From: Candidatus Babeliales bacterium
Lineage (GTDB): Bacteria > Babelota > Babeliae > Babelales > JANWKD01
Assembly (NCBI GenBank): GCA_963701665.1
Contig: OY969622.1
Span: 1,056,001 to 1,120,000, forward strand
Reading direction: 5' to 3'
DNA: 64,000 bases
Below, one piece after another: positions 29,913 to 34,107 of this stretch. The notes under the pieces are model-generated. The model saw only the letters and a program-made list of their open reading frames with translations. It had not been told where the DNA came from and searched no databases. Within the stretch, counting starts at the first letter, position 1, and every line of letters begins with the position of its first letter. A program made the translations under genes and the position numbers.

Positions 29913-31784
29913 ATGATTACTATTAACAATCTTTCCCTTGAATTCGGTTCACGCAGCCTTTATAAAGGTATTTCATGCGCTATTAATGCCACTCAGCGCA
30001 TCGGTCTTGTTGGCCGTAATGGCGAGGGTAAATCAACCCTGCTTGAGCTTATTGCCCAAGCGAGTACAAAGCCCAGCTCAACGAGTGCAATCTCTGTCGC
30101 ACACGCCAAAAAAATAGTGTATTTACCACAAGAAGTCGTTTTAGCATCAGATAAAACTATCCTTGAAGAAACCTTTACGGCATTTGCCCGTGTATACGCG
30201 CTGCTTGAAGAGGCAAACAACCTTGAACTACTTCTTGAACAAGAACCAGAAAATAGTGTGTACGGGCAACAGTATAGTGATGTTCAGGCGGAACTCGCCC
30301 ATCACAATCCCGATAAAGCACGCTCAGAAGCAAAAGAAATGCTTATGGGACTCGGTTTTAGAGAAGAGCAGTTCAACCAACCCGTTGCGTCATTAAGCGT
30401 CGGTTGGAAAATGCGTATCGTACTGGCAAAATTATTGTTACAAAAAGCTGATTTTTATCTTTTAGATGAGCCGACGAACCATTTAGATATCGTTGCAAAA
30501 GATTGGTTTTTAAAGTTCCTCAAAAAGGCACCTTTCGGCTTCTTATTAGTGTGCCATGAACGGTATTTTTTGGATCAACTATGTTCCTCTATTCTTGAGC
30601 TTGAATTAGGAAACGCAAAAATGTATACCGGCAGCTTTAGCCAGTATCAAATACAAAAAGAACGTGATCGCGAACTGCTTGAAAAAGCATACCATGAACA
30701 GCAAAGAGAAATTAAAGCAAAACAAGAAACGATCGATCGATTCCGTGCAAAAGCATCAAAAGCGCGTATGGCGCAAAGTATGATCAAAGCACTCGACCGT
30801 ATTGAAAAAATTACCATGCCGCCCTCGCCTAGGAATATTCATATAACGTTCCCCCCTTTGCAAGCGTGCGCCAAAGTTGTTCTTGAAGCGCACGGATTGG
30901 CATTTGCTTTCAATGAAAAACGTATTTTTAATAATGTTTCTTTAACGATAGAACGAGGGAATAAAATTGCGCTCGTTGCAGCCAATGGTGTTGGAAAAAC
31001 TACGCTCTTTAACGTATTAACTGGCAAGTATAAACCACAGCAAGGCACTATTACCTTTGGCAACAATGTTAAGCCCGCCTTGTTTGAACAAGAGCAAACG
31101 GCCGCCCTTGAACTTGATAAAACCATTCTTGAAAACTTAGAAACTTCATGCCCTAATATTTCTTTGCAAACCATGCGAAGCTTTTTAGGAGCTTTTCTCT
31201 TTAGCGCTGAAGATAGTAAAAAAAAGGTCCGTGTATTAAGCGGTGGTGAAAAAAATAAAGTCGGTATGATAAAAGTCCTATTGCAAAACGCCAACTTTTT
31301 ACTCCTTGACGAGCCTACTAACCACCTTGATATCCCATCAAAAGAGATATTATTAAAAGCGCTTAAAGAGTATAAAGGCACTATCTTCTTCGTATCACAT
31401 GATCATAGTTTCATCAATGAACTTGCGACCCATATTATTGAACTTTCACGTGACGGTGCGCGAAAGTATGAAGGTAACTATGATTCATACCTTTATCACA
31501 AACAACTCATGCACTCCCAGACGGAGGAAACTATGGATAAACCTTCAAAAAATCTTCAAAAAAAGAGTCTTTCTACAAAAGAACAATTTGAGCGTATGAA
31601 AAAAATACGCGCCCTTGAAAAAAAAATTGAAGAACTAGAAGCAGCTATCGATTCACAAGGCTGTATTTTTGTAGAGCTTGTATTTGGGACACCAGAGTAT
31701 CAAGAAGCCGAAATTTCCCTAAAAAAGCTTAAACTTACCCTTGCAGCCTTGATGCTTGAATGGGAAGAGCTCAATGATAGGTAA
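29913..31784 (+). CDS. ABC-F family ATP-binding protein
   Basis: Two ABC domains (GRNGEGKST and AANGVGKTT; LLDEPTNHLD twice), no TM segments, C-terminal coiled coil. Confidence 0.93.
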   Translation: MITINNLSLEFGSRSLYKGISCAINATQRIGLVGRNGEGKSTLLELIAQASTKPSSTSAISVAHAKKIVYLPQEVVLASDKTILEETFTAFARVYALLEEANNLELLLEQEPENSVYGQQYSDVQAELAHHNPDKARSEAKEMLMGLGFREEQFNQPVASLSVGWKMRIVLAKLLLQKADFYLLDEPTNHLDIVAKDWFLKFLKKAPFGFLLVCHERYFLDQLCSSILELELGNAKMYTGSFSQYQIQKERDRELLEKAYHEQQREIKAKQETIDRFRAKASKARMAQSMIKALDRIEKITMPPSPRNIHITFPPLQACAKVVLEAHGLAFAFNEKRIFNNVSLTIERGNKIALVAANGVGKTTLFNVLTGKYKPQQGTITFGNNVKPALFEQEQTAALELDKTILENLETSCPNISLQTMRSFLGAFLFSAEDSKKKVRVLSGGEKNKVGMIKVLLQNANFLLLDEPTNHLDIPSKEILLKALKEYKGTIFFVSHDHSFINELATHIIELSRDGARKYEGNYDSYLYHKQLMHSQTEETMDKPSKNLQKKSLSTKEQFERMKKIRALEKKIEELEAAIDSQGCIFVELVFGTPEYQEAEISLKKLKLTLAALMLEWEELNDR

Positions 31785-31860: not shown

Positions 31861-31890
31861 TTGATTTTCATATTGGATTTTTTGTACCAT
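31861..31890 (+). promoter_or_regulatory. Putative sigma70-type promoter for the microprotein locus
   Basis: TTGATT-N18-TACCAT about 85 nt upstream of ATG 31975. Confidence 0.35.
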
Positions 31891-31974
31891 GGTAAGTGAG
31901 AGAATAGGTTCAATCCTATCTCTATACCTACTTTTGAGACCTAGACGCAAAAGAGTAAAAAAAAGGAGTTCATA

Positions 31975-32187
31975 ATGTCAAAGCATAATAATAATAAGCA
32001 TCAAGGCGGTCAGCAAAATCCGCATGAAAAACAGGCTGAACAAGGAAGAAACCATAACCCTGGTAAGCATAACCAAAACCCACAAGGTCAACACCCAAAA
32101 CATGAAGGTCACAAACCTCATGAAGGTAATAAACAACATGAAGGCAACAAGCAAGGTCAGAACCAAGGTAATTGGGAAAAAAAGTAA
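31975..32187 (+). CDS. His/Gln/Asn/Gly/Lys-rich hydrophilic microprotein (70 aa)
   Basis: Strong AAGGAG RBS; 10 His; HEG[HN]K repeated three times; almost no hydrophobic residues. Confidence 0.8.
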   Translation: MSKHNNNKHQGGQQNPHEKQAEQGRNHNPGKHNQNPQGQHPKHEGHKPHEGNKQHEGNKQGQNQGNWEKK

Positions 32188-32199
32188 AACGGTCTAATG

Positions 32200-32245
32200 A
32201 GTAGGTAATAATAAATTTTTGTTATTACCTATTTCCTATTTTTTT
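32200..32245 (+). terminator. Terminator-like hairpin between the two microprotein genes
   Basis: TAGGTAATAA/TTATTACCTA stem followed by a T-rich tract. Confidence 0.55.
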
Positions 32246-32263
32246 AAAAACCTGGAGAATACG

Positions 32264-32368
32264 ATGAAATTCTTAATTTTTCATAAACCTGAAGGCTGTA
32301 AATGCAACAACTGTAAAAACTGTAAATGCCAAGAAGGTAAAAACTGCGGCTGTTCTTGCTGCAAGTAA
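32264..32368 (+). CDS. Metallothionein-like Cys-rich microprotein (34 aa, 9 Cys); below the ORF-track cutoff
   Basis: GGAG RBS at 32254; MKFLIFHKPEGCKCNNCKNCKCQEGKNCGCSCCK*; followed by its own terminator. Confidence 0.8.
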   Translation: MKFLIFHKPEGCKCNNCKNCKCQEGKNCGCSCCK

Positions 32369-32395
32369 TAACAACATCTTTTAGTAAAAAAATTA

Positions 32396-32431
32396 AAGCA
32401 TTTGTTTGAAAAAACAAATGCTTATTTTTTT
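32396..32431 (+). terminator. Intrinsic terminator after the metallothionein-like gene
   Basis: AAGCATTTGTTT/AAACAAATGCTT stem followed by ATTTTTTT. Confidence 0.7.
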
Positions 32432-32492
32432 AATTACGCAAATTCAATACAGTGAATTTTGCTGCACAAAGGTAACATTGAAAACAAAAATC

Positions 32493-32643
32493 GTCATTGC
32501 GAGCGAATGCGTGGCAATCCAATTATAAAATTAGTTCCTTTAAGGATTTAATTAAAGTTTGGATTCTACTTCGTTAAAACTTCGTAGAACAGGTCCCCCC
32601 ACAGCCCTTCGGAGCTCATAGAGCGAAGTAGGGTCGGGATGAC
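32493..32643 (+). repeat. Palindromic intergenic repeat, copy 6 (core plus two modules in right arm)
   Basis: GTCATTGCGAG...GGATT-[CTACTTCGTTAAAACTTCGTAGAACAGG]..[CCCTTCGGAGCTCATAGAGCGAAGTAGG]-GTCGGGATGAC. Confidence 0.93.
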
Positions 32644-32655
32644 GCGAGATTCGCG

Positions 32656-33642
32656 TCATTTCACTGTTTCGAAAATCTTTTTAACGGTCGCTAAACTTCC
32701 CACAAGTGATGATGCTTCGTAAGGCACGACAATCATTTTATTATCCTTACCTTTTGTCATTTCAGGTAATGCTTTGATATAATGCATCGCAACCATATAA
32801 GGAATTGGGTCCCCTTGCGGCACAGATTTTTGGATCATATCGATCGCCGATGCTTCTGCGTGTGCAATTTTTATACGTGCTTCTGCTTCACCCTGCGCGG
32901 TCAAAACGCGCGCTTGAGATTCGCCCTCGGCACGTAAAATATCAGCCTCGCGCTCGCCTTCTGCTTCCAAAATTGCCGCGCGTTTTTTACCTTCAGATTC
33001 AAGAATGATCGCGCGTCTATCACGTTCCGCACGCATTTGTTTTTCCATGGCAATACGAATGTCGAGTGGCGGATTAACTTCTTGGAGTTCAACGCGGTTG
33101 ATTTTAACGCCCCATTTATCCGTTGCCTCATCCAAAATCAGTCGCAATTTTTCGTTAATAAGATCACGTGAAACGAGGGAACCATCAAGATCCATTGCCC
33201 CGATAACATTACGCAATGTTGTTTGCGTTAACTTTTCAATCGCTTCGGAAAGATTTGCTACTTCATAAACGGCAGATTTAGGATCAGTGATTTGATAATA
33301 AAGAAGTGCGTTAATTTCCATCGTTACGTTATCTTTAGTAATAACATTTTGCTTGGGAAAATCGTAGACCGATTCACGCAAGTCGATACGATTGGTAGAT
33401 TTTGTATAACGATAATAGCGCTTGCCATCACCTTCTGATGTAACGTAGGTCCAATGCACCATTCGTGTCGATTCAATAAATGGCACTACTATATGAATAC
33501 CTGCGCTCAAGGTACGATCATAGCGCCCAAAACGTTCAATAATGATAGTTTCTGCTTGCTTAACTAAATACACTGCTTTTGCAAGCACAATAAAAAAAAT
33601 GAATAACAGCGCAATAAGAATAATGCTAAATTCCAAAACCAT
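32656..33642 (-). CDS. SPFH/band-7 (stomatin/QmcA-like) membrane protein
   Basis: IERFG, QNVITKDNV, TTLRNVIG, WGVKINRVE, MEKQMRAER motifs. Confidence 0.93.
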   Translation of the reverse strand: MVLEFSIILIALLFIFFIVLAKAVYLVKQAETIIIERFGRYDRTLSAGIHIVVPFIESTRMVHWTYVTSEGDGKRYYRYTKSTNRIDLRESVYDFPKQNVITKDNVTMEINALLYYQITDPKSAVYEVANLSEAIEKLTQTTLRNVIGAMDLDGSLVSRDLINEKLRLILDEATDKWGVKINRVELQEVNPPLDIRIAMEKQMRAERDRRAIILESEGKKRAAILEAEGEREADILRAEGESQARVLTAQGEAEARIKIAHAEASAIDMIQKSVPQGDPIPYMVAMHYIKALPEMTKGKDNKMIVVPYEASSLVGSLATVKKIFETVK

Positions 33643-33663
33643 TTCAAGTCCCTTCAAAAATAA

Positions 33664-34107
33664 TTAGTTCGTTTGCTTAACTATGCAGTGGCACCCACGC
33701 ACAGCAACAACTTCCACATATGACCCAGCGTGAATAAGATTATCAGCATGGGCACGTGCTGACCATTCTTCACCGCCAACTTTAATACGTCCTAAAGACT
33801 GTTCTGTAATATCAGTAAGCGCAACCCCCGCTTTGCCCTGCAGCGCAAACATATTTGTTTTTGGCTCATGAGCACGGTTAAGCTGCTTGGTCACCCGTAA
33901 AAAATAATGTAACACAACTACTGCTATACATGTTCCACCGAGCATGCTCACTAACTGGTAAAAAAAAGAAGCTTCAAACAACGTCGCTACTAAAGCGATG
34001 CCTGAACCAATGCTGAACGAAAGAAAGAAGAAAAGTCCTGGATGACCTAGTTCAAGGAGTAAAAAGATAAGTGTCAGCAACAGCCAAGTCATGCAATCGT
34101 AATTCAT
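33664..34107 (-). CDS. NfeD-family protein
   Basis: N-terminal TM helices and OB-fold GRIKVGGEEWSAR; canonical partner upstream of SPFH. Confidence 0.88.
   Translation of the reverse strand: MNYDCMTWLLLTLIFLLLELGHPGLFFFLSFSIGSGIALVATLFEASFFYQLVSMLGGTCIAVVVLHYFLRVTKQLNRAHEPKTNMFALQGKAGVALTDITEQSLGRIKVGGEEWSARAHADNLIHAGSYVEVVAVRGCHCIVKQTN

Follow-up and report, generated by a model that had tools for sequence, protein, structure and literature searches.

A very likely gene for a 34-residue metallothionein-like peptide beside qmcA in one genus of Babeliales

Few or no aromatic residues are among the criteria for metallothioneins (MTs), and the vertebrate beta domain is a nine-Cys, three-metal MT domain. 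MTs are classed in 15 families (PMC11273490), and a large excess of Lys over Arg is described as general to them (PMC4862169). The gastropod beta domain has nine Cys for three metal ions (PMC11101346), and in ciliates the Cu-MT repeat is given as CKCX2-5CXC and the end of the Cd-MT module as CXCCX(K/Q) (PMC4862169). On the bacterial side, SmtA and MymT were, according to PMC7387436 (2020), the only MTs with a studied function before the Pseudomonas MT, which is reported there to have no metal regulator, to be induced in stationary phase and to be needed for long-term survival. MymT of Mycobacterium tuberculosis comes from a tiny Cys-rich ORF that had escaped annotation (PMC7558416). Environmental MT candidates number in the hundreds in published work, and of the 23 tested in the DeepMetagenome study, 20 made E. 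coli resistant to Cu or Cd (PMC11705764).

The peptide described here is encoded in a window of 64,000 nucleotides (contig OY969622.1, positions 1,056,001 to 1,120,000) from a Candidatus Babeliales bacterium whose genome (G000; 1.34 Mb) is 94% complete. Babeliales are likely protist-parasitic bacteria. The features of the locus and of the loci compared with it are collected in Table 1. As the earlier note had reported, nine Cys lie in the last 23 residues of the translated ORF (residues 12-34), spaced CxC-xx-C-xx-CxC-x5-CxC-x-CC, and a GGAG precedes the ATG at a suitable place for a ribosome-binding site (RBS). The same note spoke of clusters without aromatic residues, which is true of the Cys region but not of the leader, where two Phe are found; the orthologue described below has one Phe. 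The peptide is basic, with 7 Lys against 2 acidic residues, and in its 11-residue leader, short and unlike the core in composition, inspection by eye reveals neither a signal peptide nor a lipobox. The frame is closed by two TAA. One contig of short reads in a public DNA run, possibly the source sample itself, agrees with the whole of 32227-32472 (0 differences), which speaks against an assembly error as the origin of the frame. Two other readings of the region were rejected: a 49-aa version with a TTG start, which overlaps the upstream hairpin while GGAG precedes the ATG instead, and a 34-aa hydrophobic antisense ORF (32273-32377) with no RBS and no same-frame start in the same-genus relative.

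Table 1. Features of the locus and of comparison loci; positions without prefix are those of the window.
Feature	Position	Strand	Remarks
ABC-F family ATPase	29913-31784	+	Upstream neighbour
Sigma-70-like promoter site	31861-31890	+	TTGATT, 18 nt, TG just before TACCAT; by eye
His/Asn/Gln/Lys/Gly-rich 70-aa ORF	31975-32187	+	10 His, 0 Cys; AGGAG at 31964-31968
Terminator-like hairpin (32199-32234) with U-tract	32199-32245	+	Between His-rich and Cys-rich ORFs
Shine-Dalgarno-like GGAG	32254-32257	+	6 nt 5′ of ATG
Metallothionein-like ORF	32264-32368	+	34 aa, 9 Cys (26%), 7 Lys, 0 Arg, 1 His
Bidirectional intrinsic-terminator-like hairpin	32396-32423		12-bp; both strands score; fold z -6.3
Dispersed repeat copy	32426-32660		About 100 partial matches in genome (blastn); not part of the gene
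qmcA-like SPFH/Band 7 gene	32656-33657	-	Pfam PF01145 over cut-off; convergent, synteny anchor
nfeD-like gene	33664-34107	-	Pfam PF01957 over cut-off; upstream of qmcA
Orthologue in G001	L007:3395-3508	-	37 aa, 8 Cys (22%)
His/Lys-rich ORF clusters facing qmcA	L007:3572-3790, L011:2370-2567, L012:1897-2775, L013:538-747
Other Cys-rich intergenic small ORF of G000, outside the window	G000:C1:443056-443295	-	79 aa, 12 Cys, signal-peptide-like start, RBS
Free-standing Cys-rich ORFs, other Babeliales family	L091, L071, L074, L077, L078, L079, L080
Fused His/Asn-rich and Cys-rich ORF after lepA	L083:2882-3079	+	65 aa; halves with 10 His and 10 Cys
Signal-peptide-type Babeliales protein behind DUF305/CopM-like gene	L044:1393-1647	-	84 aa, 17 Cys; no family match
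Signal-peptide-type Babeliales protein	L081:2941-3297		118 aa, 13 Cys; no family match
Signal-peptide-type Babeliales proteins	L075:2804-3301, L076:2856-3353		165 aa, 18-19 Cys; no family match
Signal-peptide-type Babeliales protein	L085:2096-3862		588 aa, 64 Cys; no family match
12-Cys ORFs, Arenimonas and other proteobacterial records	L168:1893-2087, L171:1841-2057, L164:1771-1985, L157:1977-2214		36-48 aa; next to cueR
Pelagibacter-type 12-Cys ORFs	L134:1965-2084, L141:1965-2084		39 aa; between MBL-fold gene and cysE
Phage nine-Cys peptides	L262, L266, L270 and 39 more		20-22 aa
Signal-peptide Cys-rich peptides and Cys-rich Prevotella tails	L105, L137, L177, L111, L178, L109, L146, L155

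Three of the 1186 intergenic ATG ORFs of 20-99 aa in the genome have at least six Cys together with at least 15% Cys, and none of 26,883 ORFs from dinucleotide shuffles (n = 30) reaches seven Cys and 20% Cys; stop-to-stop frames with at least seven Cys in 25 aa number 58 genome-wide, the present one included, most of them apparently shadow frames. The genome has one other small intergenic ORF that is rich in Cys and preceded by an RBS, outside the window. A metal-free AlphaFold2 model of the 34-aa peptide (pLDDT 62, pTM 0.24) is too poor for fold comparison.

In one relative of the same genus (G001) ABC-F and qmcA stand next to each other as they do in G000, and between them lies an orthologue with AAGGA at its 5′ side. 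Both orthologues have Cys at positions 1, 3, 6, 19, 21 and 22 counted from the first Cys, without any gap (CxCxxC-x12-CxCC), and NNCK is kept between them as well. Most non-Cys residues differ, and one CxC of the G000 peptide is missing in G001, which has Cys at other positions instead, 2-3 Cys being movable. Conservation of the Cys pattern in relatives, proposed beforehand as a check, is thus found for six Cys and not for all nine. Two synonymous changes lie in the core, and one Cys codon has changed synonymously. Four-fold sites of qmcA and abc-F together are identical at 106 of 280 positions (38%) in the two genomes, and a rough neutral model gives a probability of about 7e-5 that at least six of nine Cys would be kept; start, RBS, open frame and six Cys have been retained although neutral sites are near saturation. 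Because six Cys stand in register at the same place in a same-genus genome, the 34-aa ORF very likely represents a genuine gene of genus level that annotation lacks. Matches to qmcA were obtained at 186 loci in 184 of the 261 genomes of the phylum, and among the best 30 of these 186 loci a Cys-rich small ORF stands beside qmcA in G000 and G001 alone (2/30), so that within this set the gene is found in one genus only. A metagenome scan gave seven matches with no further orthologue among them; one of the seven, in unrelated surroundings, was a Cys-rich ORF of 26 aa.

The designation of the gene as unannotated is borne out, since the peptide is absent from a collection of 15 billion proteins, as are nine related sequences (10/10 absent), and its orthologue is syntenic. 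It has no match in Pfam, NCBIfam or PHROG families, none by phmmer among 1.84 billion proteins at E 0.001, and none to any MT in Pfam or PDB. A word-index search gave no candidate with the 49-codon frame, and with alignment A4 none of 42 candidates scored. These blanks say little, because a direct search of 41 genomes returned weak shadow-frame matches alone and missed the true orthologue, and the A4 profile run over 261 genomes recovered just seven of its own nine members and nothing new. Atlas matches are all at or below 0.85, and the sole named one, an insect-type MT cluster at 0.80, is a lead at most; seven Rfam matches all lie far under the gathering score. A full-text literature search for 'Dependentiae' with 'metallothionein' gave no paper, within a scope mostly outside subscription journals, and none on this peptide was found among titles and abstract openings, again mostly without such journals.

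The promoter-like site upstream of the small ORFs was recognised by eye and was not called by a consensus promoter scan; by eye, too, a layout of TTG.., 18 nt and a -10-like hexamer recurs upstream of the small-ORF cluster in all five family genomes aligned. The 70-aa His-rich ORF has no family match, and a direct search with it found itself alone (1/5 genomes); ORFs of like composition, with 26-33% identity to it, face qmcA in 4/4 family relatives. The cluster that faces qmcA is specific to the family; it counts one to five small ORFs, hydrophilic, rich in His and Lys and preceded by strong RBSs, and its members may be regarded as candidates for dormancy, DNA packing or His-based metal binding. 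In two family relatives the place of the Cys-rich gene is taken by runs of small ORFs that are rich in His and Lys and free of Cys, and among the five family genomes ABC-F adjoins the qmcA slot in G000 and G001 alone. The hairpin with U-tract between the His-rich and Cys-rich ORFs (fold z -3.3) is matched in G001 by a hairpin at the corresponding place whose sequence differs (z -3.3), so that expression of the Cys-rich ORF would need read-through or another promoter. The gene had also been credited with its own terminator. A hairpin is indeed present downstream, but it is bidirectional and common to nfeD-qmcA, the gene pair that runs towards the Cys-rich ORF. G001 lacks it; there the stop of the Cys-rich ORF abuts that of qmcA, and the ORF is probably antisense to the 3′ UTR of qmcA. 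In G000 the dispersed repeat sits between this terminator and qmcA, and it is absent there in G001. No metal-related gene or operator was found at the locus.

Both orthologues have the small size and high Cys content of the MT superfamily, and its CxC/CxxC/CC clusters are present, with six Cys in register, in these two direct members. The peptide resembles SmtA/BmtA as a small bacterial Cys-rich peptide, but it is shorter, carries its one His outside the part that contains the Cys, and has no match to PF02069, which exceeds the cut-off in none of the 261 genomes of the phylum (a Synechococcus control was positive); nor was SmtB/ArsR found in its genome (no HTH_5 match in G000, 14/14 controls positive). 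This agrees with the earlier note, which had set it apart from SmtA/BmtA. Like MymT it is a very small Cys-rich ORF overlooked by annotation, but it has no NCBIfam match (the presence of a MymT model there is unconfirmed), and no CsoR/RicR-type repressor was found, the CsoR family being present in 0/5 family genomes. With the Pseudomonas MT, itself one of the SmtA/BmtA group, as described in PMC7387436, it shares the lack of a metal regulator and a position among genes of unknown function. The DeepMetagenome candidates are likewise short Cys/His-rich environmental peptides, but they were mined from called proteins, whereas the 34-aa ORF is absent from the 15-billion collection; the comparison is by description, and the sequence lists of that study could hold members of the wider class treated below (PMC11705764).

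Motifs of eukaryotic type had been noticed in the peptide, and they do match those of Tetrahymena MTs: CKC-x5-CxC fits the family 7b Cu-MT repeat and the CxCCK end fits the 7a Cd-MT module end, the excess of Lys over Arg is held in common, and 26% Cys falls within the Tetrahymena range (PMC4862169). The peptide has 34 aa, however, where the Cd-MTs listed in that paper have about 100-190 aa, and it consists of one short unit, not of tandem modules, its CKC-x5-CxC unit being absent in the G001 orthologue; it therefore lacks the repeated units in a long chain that define family 7. Since no significant sequence match exists, convergence would be as likely as kinship with the Tetrahymena MTs. The animal nine-Cys domains are alike in mass (about 3.5 kDa), in the nine Cys of the G000 peptide and in CxC motifs, but nine Cys are not conserved here and no Pfam or PDB match is found. 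The proposal that nine Cys mark a three-metal beta domain is consequently not supported, the orthologue having eight Cys with only six in register. As to a possibly new bacterial MT family, the very likely gene and the missing family match are in its favour, while the lack of a metal-related gene nearby is not.

In the 94% complete genome of G000, and with positive controls, no CDF, Fur/Zur, ArsR, CsoR, Cu/Zn SOD or HMA was found, nor any heavy-metal RND, ZnuA, ZIP or P1B ATPase; the sole P-type ATPase is without CPC and far below the P1B cut-off. Two MerR-family genes were rejected as metal sensors by sequence, one being HspR-like (just under the cut-off) and the other without Cys. The P1B, RND, ZnuA and ZIP gaps hold for all five family genomes, including those without a Cys-rich ORF in the slot, and because relatives with the same gaps carry Cys-free ORFs there, a lack of efflux pumps does not make the peptide indispensable.

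Peptides of similar style were sought by DNA motif. The first pattern was swamped by shadow frames (170/261 genomes of the phylum), and a second matched 54 of the 261, of which 44 supplied the loci examined, many again with shadow frames. Seven genomes of another Babeliales family carry free-standing ORFs of 34-53 aa with 11-16 Cys near upp or rsmG, with a hairpin downstream; synonymous change exceeds non-synonymous change in three of four pairs of these, one pair having 12 synonymous against 4 non-synonymous codons with 15/15 Cys kept. The fused ORF at L083 echoes the two-ORF arrangement (His-rich plus Cys-rich) of the window, and larger Cys-rich Babeliales proteins of signal-peptide type are also present (Table 1). 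Over all species genomes, the motif C[KN]CxxCKC-x5-CxC gave at least 120 loci; among the 120 listed, 49 have an open frame and 71 do not. Fourteen look-alike loci in other bacteria were picked by eye, and at four of these hand-picked loci a metal gene that passes its cut-off lies no more than 2 kb away: CueR (L164), CueR with CDF (L171), the CsoR family (L177) and DUF326 with a multicopper oxidase (L111). A CueR-like box, judged at L157 and L168 against what we take to be its motif, is present at these two loci besides, and the remaining ones have none. At L164, L168 and L171 such a box lies just 5′ of a 12-Cys ORF, and the 12-Cys proteobacterial ORFs are likely copper-induced mini-metallothioneins. 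A peroxiredoxin lies near the Pelagibacter-type ORFs. Signal-peptide Cys-rich peptides occur in Verrucomicrobia, Kiritimatiellales, Chlamydiae and Solibacter, two of them with CsoR or Csp/multicopper oxidase as neighbours, and in Prevotella it is longer proteins that have Cys-rich tails. A nine-Cys peptide, CxCxxCKCxxxCxCxCCxC, is encoded at 42 of the 83 loci in viral contigs, and three of its Cys and the stop go beyond what the search pattern demanded; it has 33 distinct cores and varied gene neighbours, and one Flavobacteriaceae record (L125) contains it too. When the G000 peptide was scored against phage, Babeliales and gammaproteobacterial profiles, 6, 21 and 5 of 1000 of its own shuffles reached its score, a test that is partly circular in that the three profile sets were found with patterns modelled on this very peptide; for the G001 orthologue the figures were 122, 361 and 613 of 1000, not above shuffles. 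A style common to the G000 peptide and its look-alikes is clear, and kinship with the Babeliales, CueR/CsoR/Csp-linked and phage peptides is weakly supported.

Copper and zinc are among the poisons that protists turn against the bacteria they ingest. The reading that we moderately favour is that the 34-aa peptide acts as a cytoplasmic, MT-like metal buffer or store, probably not induced by metal. A transcript starting from the promoter-like site would carry the His-rich ORF and then, through partial read-through of the intervening hairpin, the Cys-rich ORF. The peptide would stay in the cytoplasm, as the lack of a signal peptide suggests, and would be unfolded without metal; the core CxCxxC...CxCC with its 2-3 movable Cys would bind metal, and a few Cu(I) or Zn(II) ions might be wrapped in the resulting thiolate cluster. 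As for preference, our guess is about evenly balanced for and against Cu(I), with Zn/Cd somewhat less probable and the lack of any preference unlikely. Because no metal sensor was found in the genome, expression is probably constitutive or tied to a stage of the life cycle, comparable to that of the Pseudomonas MT. The peptide may serve the extracellular particle, Dependentiae particles being described as inactive outside the host, with a condensed nucleoid (PMC6561590).

The same particles, and the same slot, bear on a different reading, in which the peptide is one of several small basic disordered proteins that build or pack the inactive extracellular form, its Cys making disulfides or condensing DNA. 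Chlamydial OmcA and protamine-like proteins would be its analogues. The small His/Lys-rich, Cys-free ORFs that occupy the slot in two relatives, the excess of Lys over acidic residues and the condensed nucleoid suit it; the leader, however, would leave the peptide in the reducing cytoplasm, and its CxC-rich spacing resembles that of peptides beside copper genes elsewhere, so that we regard a packaging role as unlikely. A small thiol redox buffer, or a peptide with a single Zn or Fe-S site instead of a multi-metal sponge, would need no more than the six Cys that are fixed, and the Pelagibacter look-alikes among peroxiredoxin, cysE and cysK-like genes point in that direction, as does the sole PDB match, FeoC/YhgG. 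This match (E 0.45) is not significant, and eight or nine Cys in 22 residues exceed one site; such a function is judged distinctly improbable.

That the ORF has no selected protein function today, being in decay or barely expressed behind a terminator, is suggested by the hairpin with U-tract upstream in both genomes, by the divergence of most non-Cys residues and by the restriction to one genus among the best 30 of 186 qmcA loci. Against this stand the start, RBS, frame and six Cys kept despite near-saturated neutral sites, and a codon use that is typical (CAI 0.76 against 0.71 ± 0.03, a weak indication at 34 codons); decay is accordingly judged highly unlikely. We give hardly any credence to a precursor of a modified peptide, either a RiPP metallophore or a sactipeptide, or to a defensin-like antimicrobial. 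The short leader of different composition would fit a precursor, and a profile of nine Babeliales peptides matches plectasin variants (E 0.004-0.3), but this match is driven by Cys and is not seen with the 34-aa peptide alone. Moreover, no modifying enzyme or exporter lies nearby, MNIO/DUF692 is found in 0/5 genomes, a single distant radical SAM gene is present in G000 and none was found in G001, and a signal peptide is not apparent by eye.

The metal-buffer reading can be extended, doubtfully, to an undescribed class of eukaryote-style (CKC/CxCC) prokaryotic mini-metallothioneins, in which the G000 peptide would be the main Cu/Zn buffer with the His-rich protein as its partner and would be loaded into the dormant particle. 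Such a class would span Babeliales, CueR-controlled gammaproteobacterial genes, Pelagibacter and 20-residue phage peptides. The surprise is moderate, since hundreds of environmental MT candidates have already been published (PMC11705764) and metal binding is here predicted. Gene callers and profile searches miss such peptides, and a direct search overlooked even the same-genus orthologue. The setting is a genome with no detected Cu/Zn pump or sensor, and a peptide of 34 residues is cheap to synthesise. Loaded into a dormant infectious particle, such a buffer would aid survival of the metal attack of the host and subsequent regrowth. If the peptide binds metal, it would offer a minimal model of metal buffering in reduced intracellular bacteria, with motifs of eukaryotic type contained in 34 residues.
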